DNA of 64,000 nt, taken from assembly GCA_038065275.1 (NCBI GenBank), contig JBBTRH010000007.1, positions 2,873 through 66,872 on the forward strand, written 5' to 3'. Every line of letters starts with the position of its first letter. Positions within the stretch are counted from its first letter, which is position 1. The position numbers and the translations under genes were made by a program. The stretch comes from Patescibacteria group bacterium. GTDB taxonomy: Bacteria; Patescibacteriota; Patescibacteriia; SBBC01; CAIJZX01. Below, one piece after another: positions 34,698 through 46,418 of this stretch. Under the pieces are notes generated by a model. It saw only the letters and a list, made by a program, of their open reading frames with translations. It was not told where the DNA came from and did no database searches.

Positions 34698-34843
34698 CCA
34701 GGCTGGGGCGGGATATCCGTTGAACTACGAGGGCACGGGTCTTGTGCGGGATGTGCGTTGCCGGGCGAAGCCGGGTCCGGCTCCGCCGGAAACGAGGGAG
34801 GCATCATCTAGTGCGGAACGGAAACAGCTTATCAGAAGTTTTC

Positions 34844-36412: not shown

Positions 36413-38047
36413 CTAGGTGCTCCCCAACCGCAGACCGTTCTTCACCGTCCGCGGGAAGACGAAATAGTTCTGGATCTGCTCGAACTTTTTCTTCAGGCCG
36501 CTGTAACGGAAGACGCGGAGGCCGGGATCGCCGTTCCGGTATGTCCCGGTGATGATTTCTTCGCGGCCGTCGCGGTTGACATCCAGGACGGTCAACGTCA
36601 CGCCGCCCCGGTAGGCCTTCGACGTCGGCAAGAAGTGCGCTCGGAGTTTGCCGTTGATATCGAAGACGTTGATGTCCGAGTAATACCCCGGTCCGCCGAC
36701 GGTGATGATGTTCGCCCGGCCAGTGCCGAAGACGTCGCCGCTGGCCACGGTCAGCCCCGAAGTAAACTGGATGGGGTAGGGATTAAAGCGACGCACCACT
36801 TTCAGCTCATTCTTGTCATTCAGGTTGAGAATCGTTACTGAGCGGCCGTTGAGGCGCGGGGCCACGATGATCTCCGCCCGGGCATCGCCATCGAGATCGC
36901 CAGTTGCAATCGAGTACCCTTGACGCTGGGTCCGGTCGTAGGCGAACCCTTGGGCCAAGCTGGTGAATTTTTTCGTGGTCTGGTTATAAGTCCAAATACG
37001 AATCTGCGGGTAAGACTTGGCCGGAACGGTGATGAGCTCGTCAACACCGTCAGCGTTCACGTCGCCCGCCGCGACCGCCACCCCGGTTTTCCGCTCGGTG
37101 GAATAGGGATTGAAGCTGGTGACGAGCCGGCCGTCAGGCGTAAACACTTTCACCAGCGGGTCAGTGCCGGCGCCGGTTCCGACAATGACGTCGGCTTGAT
37201 GGTCCCCGGTGACGTCCCCCGCGGCGACGTTAATCCCGTTTCGATCTGATTTGGCGAACGCGTTGAACTGCTTGGTCGTTTTTTTCGTGACGGGGTCAAT
37301 CACCCGCACTGTCGGTTCGCGACCCGGAGCCAAACCGGCCACGATGATGTCCTTGATAACATGCACCGGTCCGCCGCCGGTCGGTGACGGTTTGTCGGGT
37401 GAAACAACAGGCCCAACGCATGATTGCTTGATCAGCGGCACGTCGAGTCCGGCCGGACAACCGTTGGTGGCGGTGCAAGTCCGGCTCTGGGTGCCGCTGA
37501 CACAGGCCGTCCATTCCGAACAGGTATAGGTTGGAACGCACGCCTGCAACGTGGCCGCGGTGGTTTTCGTAGCCACGTTAGACATGGTCGAGACGTTGCC
37601 GGCCTCATCGGTCGACTTCAAAGCGAAGAAGTACGTGGTGGCCGGTTGGAGGTTGGTGACCGTGGCGGTCTCGGTCGTGCCGGCCGGAGCCGGGATTGGC
37701 GGCCCAAGTACCAAGATGGCTGAATCGAAGGATGCTTCGGTGATCGGACTGGCGGCGTACCGCAGGTTGTAGCTGGTTGCTTGGCCGACGTTGCCGTCGT
37801 CACCAGGCGCCGTCCAGGTCAGCGTCACGGCCGTGGCCGTTGATGGCGCCGATTGTTCGCTGACCGGGCCCGGGATGAACAAAAACCCGGCGCCCGGACT
37901 GACGAACAGGGCGGTGCCGAGCGCCAGCGAGATGAGGCTGAGGGAAATGGCAATCAAGCCAATCGACACTTGATGGACGGTGTTGATTCGTTGCTTGGTG
38001 GCGATTTCTGTGCGGCGCGGGGGCATAAAGAATCGTGATAATAGCAT
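36413..38047 (-). CDS. Cell-surface protein with a fibronectin type III domain and FG-GAP/VCBS-like repeats
   Basis: N-terminal TM/signal anchor, FN3-like segment (…LTWTAPGDDGNVGQATSYNLRY…), then repeated GDVxxDGxxEII propeller blades. Start at the first in-frame ATG (Met6 of the tracked ORF, which begins at a TTG). Confidence 0.7.
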   Translation of the reverse strand: MLLSRFFMPPRRTEIATKQRINTVHQVSIGLIAISLSLISLALGTALFVSPGAGFLFIPGPVSEQSAPSTATAVTLTWTAPGDDGNVGQATSYNLRYAASPITEASFDSAILVLGPPIPAPAGTTETATVTNLQPATTYFFALKSTDEAGNVSTMSNVATKTTAATLQACVPTYTCSEWTACVSGTQSRTCTATNGCPAGLDVPLIKQSCVGPVVSPDKPSPTGGGPVHVIKDIIVAGLAPGREPTVRVIDPVTKKTTKQFNAFAKSDRNGINVAAGDVTGDHQADVIVGTGAGTDPLVKVFTPDGRLVTSFNPYSTERKTGVAVAAGDVNADGVDELITVPAKSYPQIRIWTYNQTTKKFTSLAQGFAYDRTQRQGYSIATGDLDGDARAEIIVAPRLNGRSVTILNLNDKNELKVVRRFNPYPIQFTSGLTVASGDVFGTGRANIITVGGPGYYSDINVFDINGKLRAHFLPTSKAYRGGVTLTVLDVNRDGREEIITGTYRNGDPGLRVFRYSGLKKKFEQIQNYFVFPRTVKNGLRLGST

Positions 38048-38132
38048 ACTGAAAAACCGCAAAAATGTGAAGGGGGGTCAACTGAAGGAATTTTCTAAAG
38101 CACCCGAGAAAATTGATGGATGTTTTTTAACG

Positions 38133-40730
38133 TTAGGGTTTACCTCTTATTTTCTTCGGATAAAGCTTTTTAGCTTGACCGATGACTTCCTTCGCCGCCC
38201 AGTCAGGAGCATCACCGAAACTTTCCAAGTTCGTTCCGTCCGGCGCATATGTTGATACGACTTGTCGGGCACCGGATCCGATGCCTCCAGCTTTCACAAT
38301 CGCGCCTAAAGATTTCAGCGACTCTTTGGCGGCAATGGTCGTGGCCGGATTATCACTGCCGCCATCGGCTGAAACCAAGACTAATCGTAAACGTTCCTTG
38401 CCTGAAGTATGTTCACTCGCGTCTTCTTGAATCATTCGTCGAACGGTCTGCAATCCCAAGTGATCGGGAGTTCCGCCGCCGACATTCTCCTGCAAAGATC
38501 TCCAAACCCTGGCTTGTTCTTTCGGCCCCCATGATGTGCCGAGCGGCAATTCCACCTTACCCGATCCACCTTGAAAACTCACTAACGCCACGCGCAAATC
38601 CAGCGGAGAAATCAACTTAATTTTCTGTCGTTTGAACTCCTGGGCCGCCCCGTACATGGAATCCATCATCAGGAACACGAACGTTTGCTGATCTTCCCAT
38701 TTCGGCCGACCACTGCTTGGATCGGTCTCAGACATGGACCCGCTTTTATCAACCGTCAAAAATGCATCAAACCCGCCGTAAATTTGTTCACGTTCCACCT
38801 TTCGTTCGTACTTGGAAAAACCCGACGGATCAGCCTCGCCGGCCGCCATATCCAAAACCGTTTCCACCGGATCAACGAGTTCCTGACCGCGAGAAAGTCT
38901 GATGGGTGCGGTGTATCTAATTCGGTTTACTAAATTATCTTGAATGACTTTTTGCCATTCCGCCAGCAACCGTGATCGAATATTCCGTCCTTGGTTGTCT
39001 CTCTTTTCTCGTGCTTCGGAAATCTTTCTCATAATTACCTTGGCCTCTTCTGGCGTACAATCGGCCTCGGCGGCAAAACGAAGTGCGGCCAGCTCCTCCG
39101 GCGCTCGCTCTTTCTGCTCCAGGGCTCGCTCAGCATCAGCCATCAGTTTTTCCAGCTGTTCGTCACTTAACACTTCCGCCTCTTGTTCGCCAAAATCACC
39201 TTCAAAAGCATCATCAGATTTTTCTTCGTCCGTTTCTTGGACGTCCATGTTTGGATCACCCGGCGGGGTGGCGTCTAATCTCTGCCAACGCTGGCCATCC
39301 CAGGCTTCCGCCCAGGCATGCGCCGTGCCGGAAGACATCACGGTGGCATTCTGCTTATCTTTTACTTTAACATAATGGCCGGATACCAGACACGATGGAA
39401 TTCCTATTCGGCGCAATAAAGCCACAAAGTAGGTGTTGGCGACATCGCAATCCGCCTGCCGGTGTTGCTCGATGCGTGAAAAGTATTCATTCGGGTCGCC
39501 GGACCGATAAACCGCATTGAAACTGGAATCATTGGAGTATTTTAGTGTGCTTCTGACAAAAGCCTTCAACGCCCGAGCTTTATCAAGAGCTGATTGATTG
39601 GATCTTACAATTTCTTCCAACTTACGTTGAGTTTCAGGAGAAAGAACTTCTGTCCCTGGCTGTGGCGCACTGGGGGCAACTTCTAAAACCGGTGTTGTAT
39701 TTTTACCAATCTCGGCTGAAAAAGAAATGAGTCCACGTTGCTTACTGGCGTCGATAATGAAACTGCCATGTCCATCACTTTTCACCGGCAAGACTTCACC
39801 ACCATGGGTCCGGATGGTTTGGACATCAGGCGCGTATCCATAAGGCATCGGAAGAATGGTTCTCTTGCCTCCATGTATCGTTCCGGCTACGGTTTTCCTG
39901 GTTTTTGCATCAAGCGACGTTTCTTCAACATCAGCAAGCGAGCTAGCCGACTTCTCCCAGCGCATGGCTCGATTGTTCCAGGTGTCAAAATCATCACCAC
40001 GGTAATACCCGCCGTAGAATGGTCGGACAGTGAAATATGCGCCCGGTTCATTCTCTTTGGATCGTTCCATCTCCTCCATGCTTGGGGTCAACGTGTCCTC
40101 TTGCGGCGGCGGAACATTCAAATCGGGTTGCTCCTGTTTCTGTTTCATGACTTCCGGCGGCGGTGGCTCCTGGGCTTTCGCTCGAGCTTCTTCCGTATCA
40201 CGAGATTCCAACCAATCCAGTGCTCCGGCTAATCGTGATTCAAACCATTGAAATTTGCTCCCGTAACTGATATTCCCTGAAGCCATCAGTTCAGAAACAT
40301 CAACCTCTCCTTCGGTCGATTGGCTCTTTACAATCCGGGTAAAAATCCGCTCCACCTCCGGGCGAACTTTTGGCATCGGCTGACCCAACTGCTTTGCCCG
40401 AAAACAAGAGAGGAGTTCGTTAACCCGATTTGGTTCAAGGCCAGTTGGTTCAGTTTGAGCCATGACTTCCGCCTGTAAGGCTTCAGTGTTTTCTGGGGAC
40501 GCCCTGACCGATCGATCGTATGCGCCGAGGGTTTCAAAAACGTGTTTCGCCGTCCGGGCTGATTTGCTCCGCTTGCCCAGCGATTGCCAAGAGCGCAGGC
40601 CGGCAATTCCCTCTCTTGATTGTAGGGCCTGGCCGATAGCCGCATTTTTGGCCTGGCGAAAAGCGTCTTTGGCGTCAAAACTGGCGATCTCTGGTTGTTC
40701 GGGATGACGACTTAATTCCGGGTTAGACAT
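38133..40730 (-). CDS. Large protein with transglutaminase-like cysteine-protease core and C-terminal von Willebrand factor A domain
   Basis: TGc core …QADCDVANTYFVALLRRIGIPSCLVSGHYV…GTAHAWAEAWDGQRWQRLDATP (Cys-His-Asp). vWA with MIDAS motif VDKSGSMS. Its start overlaps the RT stop by 8 bp. Confidence 0.75.
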   Translation of the reverse strand: MSNPELSRHPEQPEIASFDAKDAFRQAKNAAIGQALQSREGIAGLRSWQSLGKRSKSARTAKHVFETLGAYDRSVRASPENTEALQAEVMAQTEPTGLEPNRVNELLSCFRAKQLGQPMPKVRPEVERIFTRIVKSQSTEGEVDVSELMASGNISYGSKFQWFESRLAGALDWLESRDTEEARAKAQEPPPPEVMKQKQEQPDLNVPPPQEDTLTPSMEEMERSKENEPGAYFTVRPFYGGYYRGDDFDTWNNRAMRWEKSASSLADVEETSLDAKTRKTVAGTIHGGKRTILPMPYGYAPDVQTIRTHGGEVLPVKSDGHGSFIIDASKQRGLISFSAEIGKNTTPVLEVAPSAPQPGTEVLSPETQRKLEEIVRSNQSALDKARALKAFVRSTLKYSNDSSFNAVYRSGDPNEYFSRIEQHRQADCDVANTYFVALLRRIGIPSCLVSGHYVKVKDKQNATVMSSGTAHAWAEAWDGQRWQRLDATPPGDPNMDVQETDEEKSDDAFEGDFGEQEAEVLSDEQLEKLMADAERALEQKERAPEELAALRFAAEADCTPEEAKVIMRKISEAREKRDNQGRNIRSRLLAEWQKVIQDNLVNRIRYTAPIRLSRGQELVDPVETVLDMAAGEADPSGFSKYERKVEREQIYGGFDAFLTVDKSGSMSETDPSSGRPKWEDQQTFVFLMMDSMYGAAQEFKRQKIKLISPLDLRVALVSFQGGSGKVELPLGTSWGPKEQARVWRSLQENVGGGTPDHLGLQTVRRMIQEDASEHTSGKERLRLVLVSADGGSDNPATTIAAKESLKSLGAIVKAGGIGSGARQVVSTYAPDGTNLESFGDAPDWAAKEVIGQAKKLYPKKIRGKP

Positions 40731-41805
40731 AATCAGTATTTAGTCCGAGGCTTAGGCGAAGTTTCTCCCGCAGGTTATAGCTTTTCAACTGCGCCAGTAA
40801 ACCAATGTATGAAGCGAGCTGTTTCCCGACCAGACTCTGATATCCTTGGCTAGCCGCGTCGCCAGCCACCGCCAACGATGCCCTCCGCAATCTGATTCTC
40901 GGTACCAACCCATAAGGAAAAGCTACGGCTCCCAACATATCAACTCCCTGACTTAAACTACGGATAATGATTTTCTCGTCTGGTAAGGTTAAGTGGAGTC
41001 GAGTACGTAAAAAATCTTTCGCTTTCTGCGATACCTCGATTAAATGATTTTTATTCGCGGACACGATGTAAAAGTCGTCATTATACCGAGCGTAGCAACG
41101 AATATCACACACTTGTTTCATGAAGTAATCGAACTCATGCAAATAGATATTGGCGAATACTTGGGAAGTAAGGTTGCCGAGCGGAATCCCACGACCGCCA
41201 CTTCTCGAGTCCGAGCCTCGAAGTCGAGGACTGACATCTCCGGCGGAGCCGGATCCGGCTTCGCCGGAAAAACTGTTAATAATTGTCCGGCACAGTCGGA
41301 TATATTGCGGATCCTTCACTTGGCGACGGATGAGTGACAGTAAAATCTGATGATCGACGCTCCCGAAAAAGTTAGCGACGTCTCCGTGAAAAACATAGAC
41401 CTCTCGAGAAAAACTCTTGCTTTCCTGCCGCAAAAAATCCCAGATCCGGCTGATAGCCGCTTGCGTGCCCTTTCCCAGCCGACACGAATATGAATCAAAA
41501 AAGAATTGCCGATCGAACAGCGGGCACAAGGCCGAATATATCGCTTGGTGCACAATTCGATCCCGCACCGTCGCTTTATGAATAGAACGAAATTTAGGAT
41601 CTCGAACATAAAATCGGTTGTACTCGTCGTGCCGGTACGTTCCCGACTTAAGCTCTTTCGACAACTGCATCAGCTCCGATTCTAAATGGCGCTCGAAATC
41701 GATAACATCCCGTCGTTCCTGTTTTCCGCGTCGAAACCGTCTCCAGGCAAGATAGAGATTATCAAATCCTATTAACCCACTAAATGTTTGCAAACTATAT
41801 GTCAC
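40723..41805 (-). CDS. Diversity-generating retroelement reverse transcriptase
   Basis: RT motifs RSIHKATVRDRIVHQAIY, SYSCRLGKGTQAAI, FHGDVANFFGSVDH, the DGR-type motif GIPLGNLTSQVFANIYL (with the [I/L]GxxxSQ signature) and catalytic YARYNDDFYIV. GTG start with no ribosome-binding site. The gene has lower GC than its surroundings. Confidence 0.85.
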   Translation of the reverse strand: MTYSLQTFSGLIGFDNLYLAWRRFRRGKQERRDVIDFERHLESELMQLSKELKSGTYRHDEYNRFYVRDPKFRSIHKATVRDRIVHQAIYSALCPLFDRQFFFDSYSCRLGKGTQAAISRIWDFLRQESKSFSREVYVFHGDVANFFGSVDHQILLSLIRRQVKDPQYIRLCRTIINSFSGEAGSGSAGDVSPRLRGSDSRSGGRGIPLGNLTSQVFANIYLHEFDYFMKQVCDIRCYARYNDDFYIVSANKNHLIEVSQKAKDFLRTRLHLTLPDEKIIIRSLSQGVDMLGAVAFPYGLVPRIRLRRASLAVAGDAASQGYQSLVGKQLASYIGLLAQLKSYNLREKLRLSLGLNTDYV

Positions 41806-42164
41806 AAGATTCTTTCGACCCGCCGGTCGTTATAAAGATTTATAAAACCTATCAGATTTTCATTCCGCTACTGGCGAATTTCCCGAAACCGCAACGATAT
41901 ACTCTCGGACAGGTGATTGATCGTTCCCTTTTAAGCATGTTGGAATACATCTTTGAGGCCAATGCTATGCCGCTACCCTTGCGAGAGTCCTTACTCCTCC
42001 GAGCGATGGCGAAATGCGAATTGACAAAGATACTTATTCGGCTGTCATGCGAGAGTAGCATCATCAATAACACGCAGTACTTCCAACTCATGTCTAATCT
42101 TCAGGAGGTTGGTAAAATGCTGGGAGGATGGATCAAATACATTCGCCATCTGCCGGTAAAGTAA
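41784..42164 (+). CDS. avd: Avd-like four-helix-bundle protein (accessory variability determinant candidate)
   Basis: 126 aa with …FPKPQRYTLGQVIDRSLLSMLEYIFEAN… and C-terminal …EVGKMLGGWIKYI, matching the layout of the four-helix-bundle (bAvd) family. It ends 12 bp before the TR but is on the opposite strand, and its start overlaps the RT start head-to-head. Confidence 0.55.
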   Translation: MFANYMSQDSFDPPVVIKIYKTYQIFIPLLANFPKPQRYTLGQVIDRSLLSMLEYIFEANAMPLPLRESLLLRAMAKCELTKILIRLSCESSIINNTQYFQLMSNLQEVGKMLGGWIKYIRHLPVK

Positions 42165-42175
42165 TGACTGTTCTC

Positions 42176-42299
42176 ACAACGACCGCGGGGCGGGCACCCA
42201 ACTTCGGGTTCGAATTGTCAGCGTCGTTCCAGTTCACGTTGACCTGCCTATCCTGCGGATTCCAGTTGGCATTGGCGACCTTCGATGACGACACGCGGC
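42176..42299 (-). repeat. DGR template repeat (TR)
   Basis: 124 bp; in minus-strand sense rich in AAY codons (…AAT GCC AAC TGG AAT…AAC GTG AAC TGG AAC…). It differs from the VR at 18 positions, 17 of them TR adenines. Non-coding; the overlapping tracked ORFs are rejected. Confidence 0.9.
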
Positions 42300-42513
42300 C
42301 ACGCCCCGTATTCCTTGATCCATCCATACGCGCGGAGCCTTCCGCAGAAAACCCCTGACCGATATTCCCACAAGGAACGTCGTTGTGCTTCACTTGTTCA
42401 TCCCGCCCGGAGCCAACACTGTTGGATCTCCGATTCGGTGGAATGAGAGTCGGCGAACCAATCTCTCACATACGTATGTCGTACAGGAGGGTGGCTTCAT
42501 AAGCCGAAAATGG

Positions 42514-43164
42514 CTATCTGATTATTCTGTTGGCAATGATCGGTACTTCCCGTAAAAAATACTTCTTTACCTGCGCCCAGGTAGCGTCAAAATATATTTC
42601 CGGGTTTGGGTCGGTTTCGGCGTCTTCAAAAAAGACCAAGCTCTTCAAAATGTGGTGGTAATTGTGAGCCACCGACGGATACTGAATTTTCAATCTCTTA
42701 ATAATGTCCTCCAAGGATTCAACATTATTGGCGCACCAGTACAAATCAAAATAATCTCTTTTTTTACCGCGCTGTGAGATGGCGGTGATCTTCATGACCG
42801 CGATATCAAGCTGATTCAGTATCCGGATCGATCCGTAACGGAGAAAATTTTGTTTTGGGAGAAAGAATGGGTAGGCGATGAAACTTATTTTGCTTTTGGA
42901 CAGCTCGCCGTAAATGGTATTTTTTTCTTCCACGGTCGTCTCCCAGTTTTTATAGCGGGCAAAGTTCGATAGCAACTTTTTGGTATCAAAATCTGAATCG
43001 AGCGTAAAAAAATCTAAATCCAGAGACCGACGATGGCCGGCCTGAAGCGCCAGAGCCGTTCCGCCCGCCAAATACCATCCCGACGTAGTAAGCCATTGCT
43101 GTTGAGACAAAAAATCAAGTGCCTTCCTAGTGCGGTGCGGTAATGTTTGGTATTGCCAGTTCAT
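42514..43164 (-). CDS. AbiEii/AbiGii-family nucleotidyltransferase (type IV toxin-like)
   Basis: LAGGTALALQAGHRRSLDLDFF motif typical of DUF1814/AbiEii nucleotidyltransferases; AT-rich. Confidence 0.65.
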   Translation of the reverse strand: MNWQYQTLPHRTRKALDFLSQQQWLTTSGWYLAGGTALALQAGHRRSLDLDFFTLDSDFDTKKLLSNFARYKNWETTVEEKNTIYGELSKSKISFIAYPFFLPKQNFLRYGSIRILNQLDIAVMKITAISQRGKKRDYFDLYWCANNVESLEDIIKRLKIQYPSVAHNYHHILKSLVFFEDAETDPNPEIYFDATWAQVKKYFLREVPIIANRIIR

Positions 43165-43385
43165 GCTTTGAGTAGAAGTGTCCAGAGCGCCCTAGTCCTC
43201 GGTCGCAGACTTCGGGAACGTGTGATTATTTTTTTTAGCAGTTTTTGATCATAAAAATCCAAGACCCACCGCGCCTCTTTATCGTTCCCAAAATCAGCCA
43301 CCCGTTCAACAATATATTGGGCGTTCTTACGCGGATCAATATTTTTGGGATCAACATCCCAAAATAGCGTCGGCCTAAATTTCAT
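43161..43385 (-). CDS. Small hypothetical protein (possible cognate partner of the AbiEii-like gene)
   Basis: 74 aa; 4-bp overlap with the downstream nucleotidyltransferase gene suggests translational coupling. Confidence 0.4.
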   Translation of the reverse strand: MKFRPTLFWDVDPKNIDPRKNAQYIVERVADFGNDKEARWVLDFYDQKLLKKIITRSRSLRPRTRALWTLLLKA

Positions 43386-43458
43386 ATCACTATCAGTATA
43401 TCAGATTGCAAGCTCATTCGAAATGATAAATAATAAAGAAAAGTCTAGCCATTAAAAC

Positions 43459-46140
43459 TTAAAGTATCTCAACAACGACCGCGGGGCGGGCACCCAACCC
43501 CGGGCCCGACCTGCCAGCGTCGCTCCAGCTCACGCTGACCCGCCTACCCCGCGGATCCCAGTGGGCATCGGCGACCCCCGATGACGACACGCGGCTGTCT
43601 AATAGCCATGACCATTGAGATTTGGTCGCATCGTCGTCATAAGCGTCGAAACTGTGATTATTATGCTCTTCAAGTTCACGGCGTTGAAGAAGAAGATATT
43701 CGGACATCGTTAAGCCATTCCACTTTTTTTGTTGAAACAGCGTTTCCAGTTGATCCGGCGTTTTACCCTTCGTTTCCGACGGAACTGGTCTTGATTGGTA
43801 CATTAGCATATATGCTTTCACCGGACGGTTACGGGTTTGTGATTGTTTTGTTCCCTCGGCAATGTATGGATCGCCGTATTGATCGGGGGCGGACAAGCCG
43901 GTATGAGGTTTTTTAGCCATCTGCTCAATAACGGCGTTGATGGATCGCCCTTGAAGTTCGGCCTGCGGCAATATCATCGCCTTATCAAACCCCATTTTCA
44001 GCGCTTCTCGAATTCGCGCTTCGCCCTCCGGGGAGAATCGAATTTCTTTCGGCAGATTGTCGACAAAGTCGTAGAGGTCGTGTTCTTCATAGAACTCCTC
44101 CGAAACGCGCCGTGTTTCCGTAACGTCAAGCTTGATTTCCTTTCCTTCAAACCTTTCGGCAAAAGTCAACGAGGCGGCTGCCCATTCGCGTCGCAGGACT
44201 CGTTGGTCAACTAACTCAATGCCTGCTTCGCCCTCCATCACGACTTTACCCTGATGCGCGCCTTTTCCAACTCCTAACATACGCCATGGTCGTTTGCTAC
44301 GGTCTCCTTTTTTCATCCACTGCGACCGGCCGCCCGTTTGTTCGGGACTGTACACCACTTCCGTGCCGTCAGCTAAAAACTTGCTGGCCTCAACCGGTTT
44401 CGGGGCCTCTTTTAATGTTTCGGCTTCTCGCGGTACGCGCGGAGACAGAGCGCCGATTTCTTGCGGGGTGAGAAATCGATGTCCGCCTTCGGTATGAATG
44501 GAGTCCACCGATTCATCCAGCCGATAGGCCTGAAGAAATTTCCCTAGCAGGACGCGATCTTCCGACGGTAAACCCTTCCGGCCGGCCCATTCGTGCAACT
44601 GGTGGGTCAGAAACTCGGTCAGGCTTTGCCGGCGCATGCTGTGAAGCGCTTTCCGGTAGGCGCCGAGCCAGGACAAGACCAGGCCGGTATCAAGCACCGC
44701 CGCCCGCAGGTAGGAGGCTTCCCTTTCCGTCGGGGTCAAGGCGTTGGCTTGGCCGGTATAGCTACGCTGGATGTCGGCCATAAGATTAGCAAACCGCCAC
44801 AGCGTTCCGCCGGCTTCTGGCTGGGTTTTTAGTTCCTGGCGCTTAACATTGGTGGTGGCGTCCACCACGTCTTCATATTCCGGCGCAAGTTCCTCGGCCG
44901 GTAGACGAAGACGGCCGTTTTGGTCCATCAGTCCGGCCGTCAGCAATTCGTAGAGTTCCGGATTTTCCGGCGTCTGTGGCTGGTAGCCGATTTCTATTTC
45001 CCCCAACTCGCGAGCGACTTCAATCGGCAGATCCGACCGGTCGGGGTGTTTTTCCGACGGCAGGTTGGCCGAGCCGATAAACCCGAACTCGGACGAAAGC
45101 CGCTCAACCCGGCCGGCCCAAGCCGCGAAGGTGATGGCCTCGCCCGGCCGGCGGCCGGAGATCTGTTTGATCAGCGACCGCAGAGCATCCGGTGGATAGC
45201 CGTTCATTTCATCCATGTAGAAAATACCGCCCGGCCCTGGTTCCGTGCTGCGCGAGGTTTCCTTGCCGGTTAAGGCCTGACCCAGCTGACCGTAGTGGAT
45301 GTACGATCCTTCGCCGTCAATGGCTTTCGAACCCAGCAAAGGACGAATGTCGGATTTGGCCTCTTCCCCGACTTCAAGCGGGGATCGACCGACCAGGCGT
45401 CGGGATGCGTTCCTGGCGAGCGCGGTTTTTCCTGTCCCGGTTTCGCCGACAAGAAGGAGCGGGCGATTTTGGTTGAAGATGACCAGATACTCGATCATTT
45501 TCTCAAAATGTTGTTCGCGCGACGGAGTCCAGGCGAATCCTTCGGTTCGGAGTTGGTCGTTGTATTCCACCATGCGCTCAAACGACAACCGAGCCGCAAA
45601 CTCAGGGCTTTGATGTTCCAAAGAATCCAATCGCCGTTCTTGCGCCTCGATCTGCGCGGATAACTCACCAAGGCGGATTTGCGTCAGTTCGTCAGGGTCG
45701 CGGTCGCGATGCCGGAAAACAGTGCGGTAGAGTTTTTCTCTCTCGGCGAGGTACGAGTCGCGAGTGTCGCGCAGCTTTCGAAAATCAACCATCGGTTCGG
45801 CCAGCTTGATCCTTTCTTCGTACCACTGACGTAATTTTTCCATGAATGCTTTTTGTGTTTCTGGATTGTGCCACCGCTGTGCGATGGCATCTTTGACGGT
45901 AGCTATCCTATCAGGGCCTGGATGCTCTTCGTGCCGCCGGCGACCGTAGTCTTCCCACAACGCAAAAAGCTCTTCCGCTCCTCGAACCGCCTCGGAGTTG
46001 AAGACGGAAGTCTCCGGCGATCCTTGCGGTTCTGCCCCTTGCGGTGAGCGCGTCGAACCCGTGGTCTCGGGAGGGAGCGGTTCTACCTCTTGCTCGATTC
46101 TTTCCCAAATTGGATGGGTACCGCCTCGTTCAGAGCTCAT
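43459..46140 (-). CDS. DGR target: AAA+ ATPase (AAA_5/MoxR-like) with C-terminal C-type-lectin-like variable domain
   Basis: Walker A LLLVGETGTGKTALA and Walker B IFYMDEMNG. The VR forms the last 41 codons. Start set at Met14 (MSSERGG…) of the tracked ORF. No signal peptide. Confidence 0.8.
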   Translation of the reverse strand: MSSERGGTHPIWERIEQEVEPLPPETTGSTRSPQGAEPQGSPETSVFNSEAVRGAEELFALWEDYGRRRHEEHPGPDRIATVKDAIAQRWHNPETQKAFMEKLRQWYEERIKLAEPMVDFRKLRDTRDSYLAEREKLYRTVFRHRDRDPDELTQIRLGELSAQIEAQERRLDSLEHQSPEFAARLSFERMVEYNDQLRTEGFAWTPSREQHFEKMIEYLVIFNQNRPLLLVGETGTGKTALARNASRRLVGRSPLEVGEEAKSDIRPLLGSKAIDGEGSYIHYGQLGQALTGKETSRSTEPGPGGIFYMDEMNGYPPDALRSLIKQISGRRPGEAITFAAWAGRVERLSSEFGFIGSANLPSEKHPDRSDLPIEVARELGEIEIGYQPQTPENPELYELLTAGLMDQNGRLRLPAEELAPEYEDVVDATTNVKRQELKTQPEAGGTLWRFANLMADIQRSYTGQANALTPTEREASYLRAAVLDTGLVLSWLGAYRKALHSMRRQSLTEFLTHQLHEWAGRKGLPSEDRVLLGKFLQAYRLDESVDSIHTEGGHRFLTPQEIGALSPRVPREAETLKEAPKPVEASKFLADGTEVVYSPEQTGGRSQWMKKGDRSKRPWRMLGVGKGAHQGKVVMEGEAGIELVDQRVLRREWAAASLTFAERFEGKEIKLDVTETRRVSEEFYEEHDLYDFVDNLPKEIRFSPEGEARIREALKMGFDKAMILPQAELQGRSINAVIEQMAKKPHTGLSAPDQYGDPYIAEGTKQSQTRNRPVKAYMLMYQSRPVPSETKGKTPDQLETLFQQKKWNGLTMSEYLLLQRRELEEHNNHSFDAYDDDATKSQWSWLLDSRVSSSGVADAHWDPRGRRVSVSWSDAGRSGPGLGARPAVVVEIL
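43472..43595 (-). repeat. DGR variable repeat (VR) inside the 3' end of the AAA+ ATPase gene
   Basis: 124 bp aligning with the TR end to end. It encodes …RVSSSGVADAHWDPRGRRVSVSWSDAGRSGPGLGARPAVVV, against TR-encoded …RVSSSKVANANWNPQDRQVNVNWNDADNSNPKLGARPAVVV. Both share a GC-rich 3' block GGTGCCCGCCCCGCGGTCGTTGT. Confidence 0.9.
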
Positions 46141-46166: not shown

Positions 46167-46271
46167 CCCAGCACCACAATGGTTGATTCGTTGTTATTTC
46201 TGAAAAAAGTGCAGTCTTTACTCACGTATACGTATTTTTTTTAGTTCGCATTATACCATTGTGGTGCTGGG
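46167..46271. repeat. CCCAGCACCACA inverted-repeat element, copy 2
   Basis: CCCAGCACCACAATGGT (46167-46183) and ACCATTGTGGTGCTGGG (46255-46271), a perfect 17-bp IR around a 71-bp AT-rich spacer. It lies in the divergent region between the DGR target gene and uvrB. Confidence 0.7.
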
Positions 46272-46418
46272 TAAACGTTGCAACTTACACCATAATCGTT
46301 CTTTTGTCAATCTAGATTTTTTTATTCTGTTCGACTGCTATTATAGCAGAGATTGGGAGAAAAATCAAGTTTTTTCTTCAAGACCTATATGCCATAGACA
46401 TGGTAGGCTACCCGCATC

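Follow-up and report, generated by a model that had tools for sequence, protein, structure and literature searches.

A MoxR-type ATPase with a predicted lectin tail, encoded with a transglutaminase-like von Willebrand partner, is the target of a diversity-generating retroelement in a Patescibacteria genome

A diversity-generating retroelement (DGR) is encoded within a 64,000-nt window (the whole stretch analysed here) of contig JBBTRH010000007.1, which belongs to a metagenome-assembled genome (GCA_038065275.1) of the Patescibacteria, or candidate phyla radiation (CPR). The target gene of this DGR encodes a MoxR-type AAA+ ATPase that ends in a predicted C-type lectin (CLec) domain, and its reverse transcriptase (RT) gene is overlapped by a gene for an 865-aa protein that joins a transglutaminase-like core (TGc) to a domain of the von Willebrand factor A type (vWA). 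We propose, with a probability of about 0.55, that the ATPase works together with this TGc-vWA partner and that the DGR-varied lectin is their recognition module. The nearest relatives are Doudnabacteria, and the identical proteins in the databases, both from a Patescibacteria group bacterium, are named 'AAA family ATPase' and 'transglutaminase domain-containing protein'.

The locus is a genuine DGR, with an adenine-specific pair of repeats, an RT, an Avd protein and a variable repeat (VR) that lies in a predicted CLec fold. The template repeat (TR) and the VR align over 124 nt without any gap and differ at 18 positions, of which 17 are TR adenines (16 A>G and 1 A>C, the remaining one being T>G), an excess with a chance probability of 8e-11. 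The 27 adenines of the TR are distributed over codon positions 1, 2 and 3 as 11, 15 and 1, following the classic AAC/AAT design, and they leave 17 target codons open to mutation in the last strands of the CLec domain. Similarly, 596 of the 633 mismatches found over 37 related TR/VR pairs (loci L001-L067) fall on adenines. The RT carries the motifs LGNLTSQ and YNDD, the former being invariant in the RT alignment. Avd is recognized by the NCBIfam model DivGenRetAVD at 2.5e-19, but its 69.5 bits stay below the curated cutoff of 80; its gene keeps the same orientation in all related loci. An 86-aa open reading frame (ORF) across the TR matched no Pfam family. Adenine substitutions are skewed toward G, in the window (16 of 17) as well as over the related pairs (374 G, 135 T and 87 C), which may reflect the misincorporation spectrum of the RT or a selection for Gly, Ser, Asp and Arg codons.

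The predicted structure of the target is that of a CbbQ/NorQ-type MoxR AAA+ ATPase in which the Walker, sensor-1 and arginine residues are intact. The protein consists of an N-terminal helical region (aa ~43-222), the MoxR-type core (~225-440) and a helical lid (~446-538), followed by a disordered but conserved linker motif, a beta/alpha domain and the C-terminal CLec domain that bears the VR. It matches Pfam AAA_5 at 8.8e-10, and the Walker A GETGTGKT and Walker B IFYMDE motifs, taken in the original prediction as signs of an AAA_5/MoxR-like protein, proved conserved rather than degenerate once homologs were aligned. Indeed, D310 is invariant, E311 is conserved in at least 90% of sequences, N359 (sensor 1) and R368 are invariant across 17-22 homologs, and both Walker motifs together with N359, R368 and R377 remain invariant or nearly so in homologs with as little as 26% identity. 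Placement in an AAA+ clade by comparison of the sequence with solved structures failed, as matches to Clp, VCP and NorQ were dominated by the P-loop. When folds were compared using the predicted model, the closest structural relatives were CbbQ/NorQ-type MoxR chaperones. The core of this model presents two beta-hairpin insertions (aa 270-283 and 335-347) that would correspond to the helix-2 insert and the pre-sensor-1 hairpin of the helix-2-insert clade. The longest possible target ORF (906 aa) begins at a TTG at position 46179, and homologs begin at the ATG initially retained (893 aa). A fusion created by assembly error or frameshift was ruled out, since about 15 independent full-length homologs share the same architecture. 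A profile search of the whole library with the ATPase module retrieved 111 clusters at E <= 1e-30 and 421 at E <= 1e-10; most of these proteins measure 750-1150 aa and many have DGR-like variable tails of several sequence classes, as judged by eye.

The variable part of the target, residues 557-893, is a module that also exists in many genomes as a free-standing protein of ~361 aa. As had been anticipated, the tail was modelled as a CLec/FGE fold, and, as for variable proteins already known, the VR falls on the final beta-strands of the model. Wu et al. (2018; PMC5758913) linked the CPR class UVR4 to a midasin-type AAA ATPase and left the fold of its VR undecided, a point that the CLec prediction would answer. 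The module opens with ~24 residues (LTPQEIGALSPRVPRE...) that are predicted to be disordered but are conserved, with the motif LTPxEIGALSPRVPR. Fused proteins contain this motif, free-standing modules carry it at their N-terminus and tail-less ATPases at their end, and its presence in all three forms suggests a short docking or processing motif. The profile built from the C-terminal module misses the lectin tails of distant clades, which were recognized through their TR/VR pairs and by eye. The ATPases of loci L054, L056, L068 and L026 also have lectin-like and VR-like C-termini (e.g., ...GGAARAGWLYPVDSRNGLGFRVAVVLGT), and no RT or Avd is encoded within the 3.6-10 kb fetched around them; a DGR acting in trans, or the loss of the DGR, may account for this.

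The partner protein starts with a conserved N-terminal region, followed by the TGc core, a D/E-rich, strongly acidic linker (aa ~493-530) and, as its last domain, vWA (aa ~655-830). Pfam Transglut_core (1.7e-15) and VWA_2 (1.5e-06, aa 659-787) recognize the two domains, and a profile search also retrieved the vWA domains of solved structures at 3e-07. The Cys-His-Asp core and the DxSGS metal ion-dependent adhesion site (MIDAS) announced by the original prediction are both present, and so is the overlap of 8 bp with the RT gene. The catalytic residues C428, H471 and D486 do not vary among 23 homologs, whose identity goes down to 25%; in the same homologs, D661 and S665 of the MIDAS motif DKSGS are invariant and S663 nearly so, and T754 (in GGGTPD) and D789 are invariant or nearly so.

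The two genes nearly always travel together. Starting from the TGc-vWA protein alone, we gathered 56 genome loci and searched their six-frame ORFs with profiles; 24 loci offered at least 5.5 kb upstream and at least 3 kb downstream of the TGc gene. An AAA-module gene is located on the same strand as the TGc gene in 23 of these 24 loci, which bears out the co-occurrence proposed as a check in the original prediction, and an RT or Avd in 17. Genes are arranged in two ways: AAA(-CLec), TR, avd, RT and TGc, as seen in the window, or TGc directly followed by AAA, abutting or overlapping by 0-40 nt, with the DGR after or before the pair. Self-comparison revealed adenine-specific TR/VR pairs in ~30 loci, and clades at 25-30% identity, even those that the lectin profile does not detect, also have the VR at the 3' end of their AAA gene. 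In L006, L009, L018, L021 and L022, a short ATPase (557-599 aa) is accompanied by one or two separate lectin genes that bear the VR. Finally, in L038 and L053, the TGc gene abuts a gene for a ~768-aa ATPase without lectin tail, and no RT or Avd could be found within ~10 kb on each side, even with family profiles. Since pairs thus occur without DGR or lectin tail, the ATPase and the TGc-vWA protein form a constant core to which lectin and DGR are added. The neighborhoods of AAA homologs show the same cassette in differing chromosomal settings, and no third conserved gene was common to the cassettes in this comparison of neighborhoods, which did not include a VMAP profile search.

The same loci bear on the possibility that both proteins are accessory factors of the retroelement, involved in cDNA synthesis or retrohoming. 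The TGc-vWA gene overlaps the RT gene in the window and follows it in many loci, and Wu et al. (2018; PMC5758913) reported unexplained candidate accessory genes in DGRs. However, the DGR-less pairs of L038 and L053 argue against such a function, the gene order relative to the RT varies, and the AAA protein is itself the target of mutagenesis, so that we consider this explanation extremely unlikely.

Direct traces of diversification come from a related population. L009 and L010 represent one 8.8-kb cassette recovered from two groundwater samples, with 36 differences over 8780 positions: 30 are located inside the VRs, 6 are ~45 nt upstream of the VRs and none elsewhere, and the TRs are identical. 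Diversification confined to the VR and its immediate vicinity is thus established for this related population, not for the locus of the window itself. In both assemblies, two free-standing lectin genes flank the short ATPase gene (L009: 1139-2227 and 3966-5054; L010: 168-1256 and 2995-4083), and the two copies are identical within each assembly, VR included; this could reflect a genuine duplication in which both copies were rewritten alike, or an artefact of assembly.

Could the pair be an ordinary MoxR-vWA maturation chaperone devoted to one fixed client, with the lectin tail as a structural appendage? Its closest structural relatives are indeed chaperones of the CbbQO/NorQD type, and the pair is also found without DGR or lectin tail. 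On the contrary, the tail is a DGR target in ~30 loci, the tails of L009 and L010 differ between samples in the VR only, as expected from changing ligands, and no obvious client gene is conserved beside the cassette, whose flanks vary between genomes. A fixed client is therefore quite unlikely.

The location of the two proteins speaks to another explanation, the usual one in these host-dependent bacteria, namely that the target serves, at the surface or after secretion, as an adhesin for attachment to host cells. DGR targets of the CLec type are classically receptor-binding. Paul and colleagues reportedly proposed an attachment role for CPR targets. However, neither protein has a signal peptide or a hydrophobic segment: the target, as the original prediction had stated, has no signal peptide, nor a transmembrane segment (maximal 19-residue Kyte-Doolittle mean of 1.03, with an acidic and hydrophilic N-terminus), and the partner shows no transmembrane segment or signal-peptide-like N-terminus (maximum of 1.10). 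Furthermore, the ATPase to which the lectin is covalently linked retains its catalytic motifs and depends on cytoplasmic ATP, and CPR targets of clade 2 lack transmembrane domains (Roux et al., 2021), although the same authors left undecided whether CPR targets are genuinely non-membrane. An adhesin thus appears very unlikely. Both proteins look cytoplasmic, and the ligands would therefore be intracellular.

Several known systems share parts of this organization. AAA-CLec proteins are the most commonly observed target architecture in CPR (Paul et al., 2017, cited by Dore et al., 2024; PMC10907252), and the AAA link is present in class UVR4, category g1 (Wu et al., 2018; PMC5758913). These targets belong to the same phylum-level group as ours and share the P-loop/midasin-like AAA domain with C-terminal VR and the inverted avd between TR and RT. 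Unlike here, no CbbQ/NorQ-type MoxR assignment is given for them in the searchable literature, nor is a conserved transglutaminase-vWA neighbor mentioned in that literature, which did not cover Paul et al. (2017). The features seen in the original prediction are all present at the positions given, whereas its description of the target class as unusual and poorly described is not supported, given these reports and the related systems of Kaur et al. (2020; PMC7159879) and Zhang and Aravind (2012; PMC3495828).

The former described DGR-diversified CLec domains within MoxR-vWA systems. These VMAP ternary systems have in common with the present locus the MoxR ATPase, the vWA protein, an effector of the peptidase type and a lectin (FGS/CLec) varied by a DGR, with mostly cytoplasmic targets (Kaur et al., 2020, PMC7159879; Dore et al., 2024, PMC10907252). 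They differ in that they bear the lectin at the C-terminal side of the vWA protein, whereas it is here on or beside the ATPase and the vWA protein ends with its vWA domain. Their peptidase, usually of the trypsin or caspase type and rarely transglutaminase-like, is part of a third protein, VMAP, but is here fused to the vWA domain, and the core genes number two instead of three. Their hosts are multicellular cyanobacteria, actinobacteria and gammaproteobacteria, in contrast to CPR, and the RTs belong to a different clade. The MoxR-vWA-transglutaminase-like operons, including YebA, unite the same three domain types, and an ATP-dependent degradation was proposed for them in which vWA recruits, MoxR unfolds and the transglutaminase-like protein cleaves (Zhang and Aravind, 2012; PMC3495828). 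However, YebA-like proteins have eight transmembrane helices, act at the membrane and are associated with no DGR or lectin, whereas the transglutaminase-like protein is here soluble and fused to vWA. Lastly, CbbQ-CbbO and NorQ-NorD combine a MoxR AAA+ protein with a vWA/MIDAS adaptor, serve fixed clients (Rubisco and NO reductase) and have no lectin, transglutaminase-like domain or DGR. Compared with CbbQ/NorQ, the ATPase of the window has an additional helical N-terminus of ~220 aa and a C-terminal module of ~340 aa.

In CbbQO and NorQD, the vWA partner is coupled through its MIDAS to the client or the ATPase ring. By analogy with CbbQ-CbbO, NorQ-NorD and the MoxR-vWA-YebA operon, we infer a physical interaction in which the vWA/MIDAS domain would couple the TGc-vWA protein to the ring of the ATPase or else to the bound client. 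This client would be picked by the lectin domain, ATP hydrolysis would unfold or remodel it, and the transglutaminase-like domain would then cleave it, as proposed for the MoxR-vWA-YebA operon, or possibly cross-link it. The DGR would rewrite the ligand-recognition module of a compact and soluble MoxR-vWA-peptidase system in CPR. The machine could be the same and its enzyme a true transglutaminase that cross-links, immobilizes or modifies the ligand instead of cleaving it. The Cys-His-Asp triad is common to transglutaminases and related peptidases, and the partner profile gave a weak match to a protein-glutamine gamma-glutamyltransferase (E 0.19), but prokaryotic members of the superfamily linked to MoxR are predicted to be peptidases (Zhang and Aravind, 2012; PMC3495828). 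Cross-linking is considered unlikely.

Regarding the role of such a machine, the surveillance of proteins from invading phages or mobile elements seems the likeliest, because both proteins look cytoplasmic and the locus resembles the MoxR-vWA conflict systems to which DGRs are linked (Dore et al., 2024, PMC10907252; Kaur et al., 2020, PMC7159879). Taken by itself, an anti-invader role of the locus is put forward tentatively. Dore et al. (2024; PMC10907252) offered the speculation that the ATPase of CPR is a transducer, and their statement on the absence of conflict-system domains concerns only the CPR/DPANN RTs of clade 5F and not the main CPR RT clade. A more specific version, that the commonest type of CPR DGR target is the receptor subunit of a cytoplasmic and diversifiable system of targeted protein destruction, is more doubtful. 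In such a system, the lectin repertoire would direct the MoxR unfoldase and the vWA-tethered transglutaminase-like peptidase onto a bound foreign intracellular protein.

Several points weigh against a joint machine with a variable recognition module. The link between ATPase and partner is drawn from gene adjacency, and no PADLOC or NCBIfam model matched the ATPase or the TGc-vWA protein. The folds are predictions from shallow alignments (22-31 sequences), and the vWA domain of the partner, which may be of the CbbO/NorD-like subtype or not, was identified from its sequence. The evidence for VR diversification comes from the related L009/L010 cassette and not from the VR of the window, whose RT moreover presents an unusual insertion of 20 aa. 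Direct hints of defense are limited to AbiEii neighbors (in the window, L013 and L024) and to the prophage-like setting of L004.

Coordinates of the features are collected in Table 1, in their order on the minus strand, avd being the only gene of the series on the plus strand.

Table 1. Features of the DGR locus in the window (positions in nt; - and +, strand).
Feature	Position	Strand	Remarks
Promoter-like candidate (TTGATT, 17-nt spacer, TG-TATAAT; 10/12 matches)	46340..46368	-	~200 nt upstream of target gene
DGR target gene, 893 aa	43459..46140	-	AAA+ core and CLec tail
AAA+ alpha/beta core, aa 225-440	44821..45468	-	
Walker A, G232-T239	45424..45447	-	
Walker B, I306-E311	45208..45225	-	
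C-terminal module, aa 557-893	43462..44472	-	separate ~361-aa gene in other genomes
VR, residues 849-889	43472..43595	-	final beta-strands of CLec domain
74-aa ORF, possible antitoxin partner	43161..43385	-	4-nt overlap with AbiEii start
AbiEii-type nucleotidyltransferase	42514..43164	-	Pfam AbiEii 3.6e-15; PADLOC AbiEii models
TR	42176..42299	-	TR/VR alignment
Avd accessory protein	41784..42164	+	between TR and RT; Pfam bAvd 1.1e-14
DGR reverse transcriptase, 360 aa	40723..41805	-	Pfam RVT_1 1.8e-15; PADLOC RT 4.4e-47
TGc-vWA partner, 865 aa	38133..40730	-	Pfam Transglut_core, VWA_2
TGc core, aa 372-487	39270..39617	-	
vWA domain (Pfam part of aa ~655-830)	38370..38756	-	
MIDAS, DKSGS	38736..38750	-	

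Between the target gene and the TR, an AbiEii gene and a 74-aa ORF are inserted that are not present in the cassettes of L001 and L004. The 74-aa ORF matched no family of PADLOC or NCBIfam; it is an insertion, outside the conserved cassette. It probably forms a toxin-antitoxin pair with AbiEii, a type IV toxin. AbiEii genes also occur inside L024, where one separates the RT from the TGc gene, and in L013, at a distance of 3 kb from TGc. In a Doudnabacteria contig of 699 kb (L004/L016), the cassette is located between a serine recombinase and ParB-methyltransferase/terminase-like genes, which suggests that it is carried on a prophage or an integrative element in that genome.

The insertion in the RT (GEAGSGSAGDVSPRLRGSDSRSGG, window 41150-41300) is in frame and is not found in four homologous RTs. 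Its DNA holds a GC-rich palindrome of 30 nt (~41239..41268) that recurs with 90-96% identity at 34764-34792, directly downstream of a tRNA-Arg(CCG), and looks like a small element of the repetitive extragenic palindrome or miniature inverted-repeat transposable element type (REP/MITE-like). A scan for promoters and terminators in the region gave nothing above chance, so that the site at 46340..46368 is a candidate at most, and an Rfam scan of the window returned a tRNA and no other RNA family. The TGc-vWA, RT, avd and AbiEii genes (window 38001-44000) have a G+C content of 0.48-0.50, compared to ~0.57 for the AAA gene and the remaining window, which is consistent with a separate origin of that part of the cassette. 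The neighboring gene at 36413..38062 (minus strand) has a 549-aa product in which an N-terminal hydrophobic segment is accompanied by an FN3-like stretch and, in the translation, by FG-GAP/VCBS-looking repeats; this probable surface protein is not kept beside the cassette in other genomes.

The AAA-CLec target is thus already known, whereas its conserved TGc-vWA partner apparently was not described before. Full-text literature searches combining DGR and transglutaminase, with or without von Willebrand, returned only papers of the Aravind group and unrelated ones, and no description of a conserved soluble TGc-vWA partner was found in the searched literature, which covered neither Paul et al. 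(2017) nor the supplementary files of Wu et al. (2018). Similarly, the soluble arrangement with a lectin on the ATPase and a peptidase fused to vWA is apparently undescribed in that literature.

Bacteria of the CPR have among the highest DGR densities known. By tying their commonest target architecture to a proposed two-protein machine, in which a MoxR ATPase of the CbbQ/NorQ type is teamed with a transglutaminase-like enzyme tethered to vWA, the present analysis provides a testable model of intracellular ligand-directed remodelling or proteolysis, for which the fused, split and tail-less forms are natural controls. For DGR engineers, these parts, being small and soluble, could also be of use in the directed evolution of effector-coupled binders. 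If the lectin repertoire truly directs protein destruction, these minimal-genome bacteria would possess an anticipatory, antibody-like immunity, evolutionarily separate from the VMAP systems.

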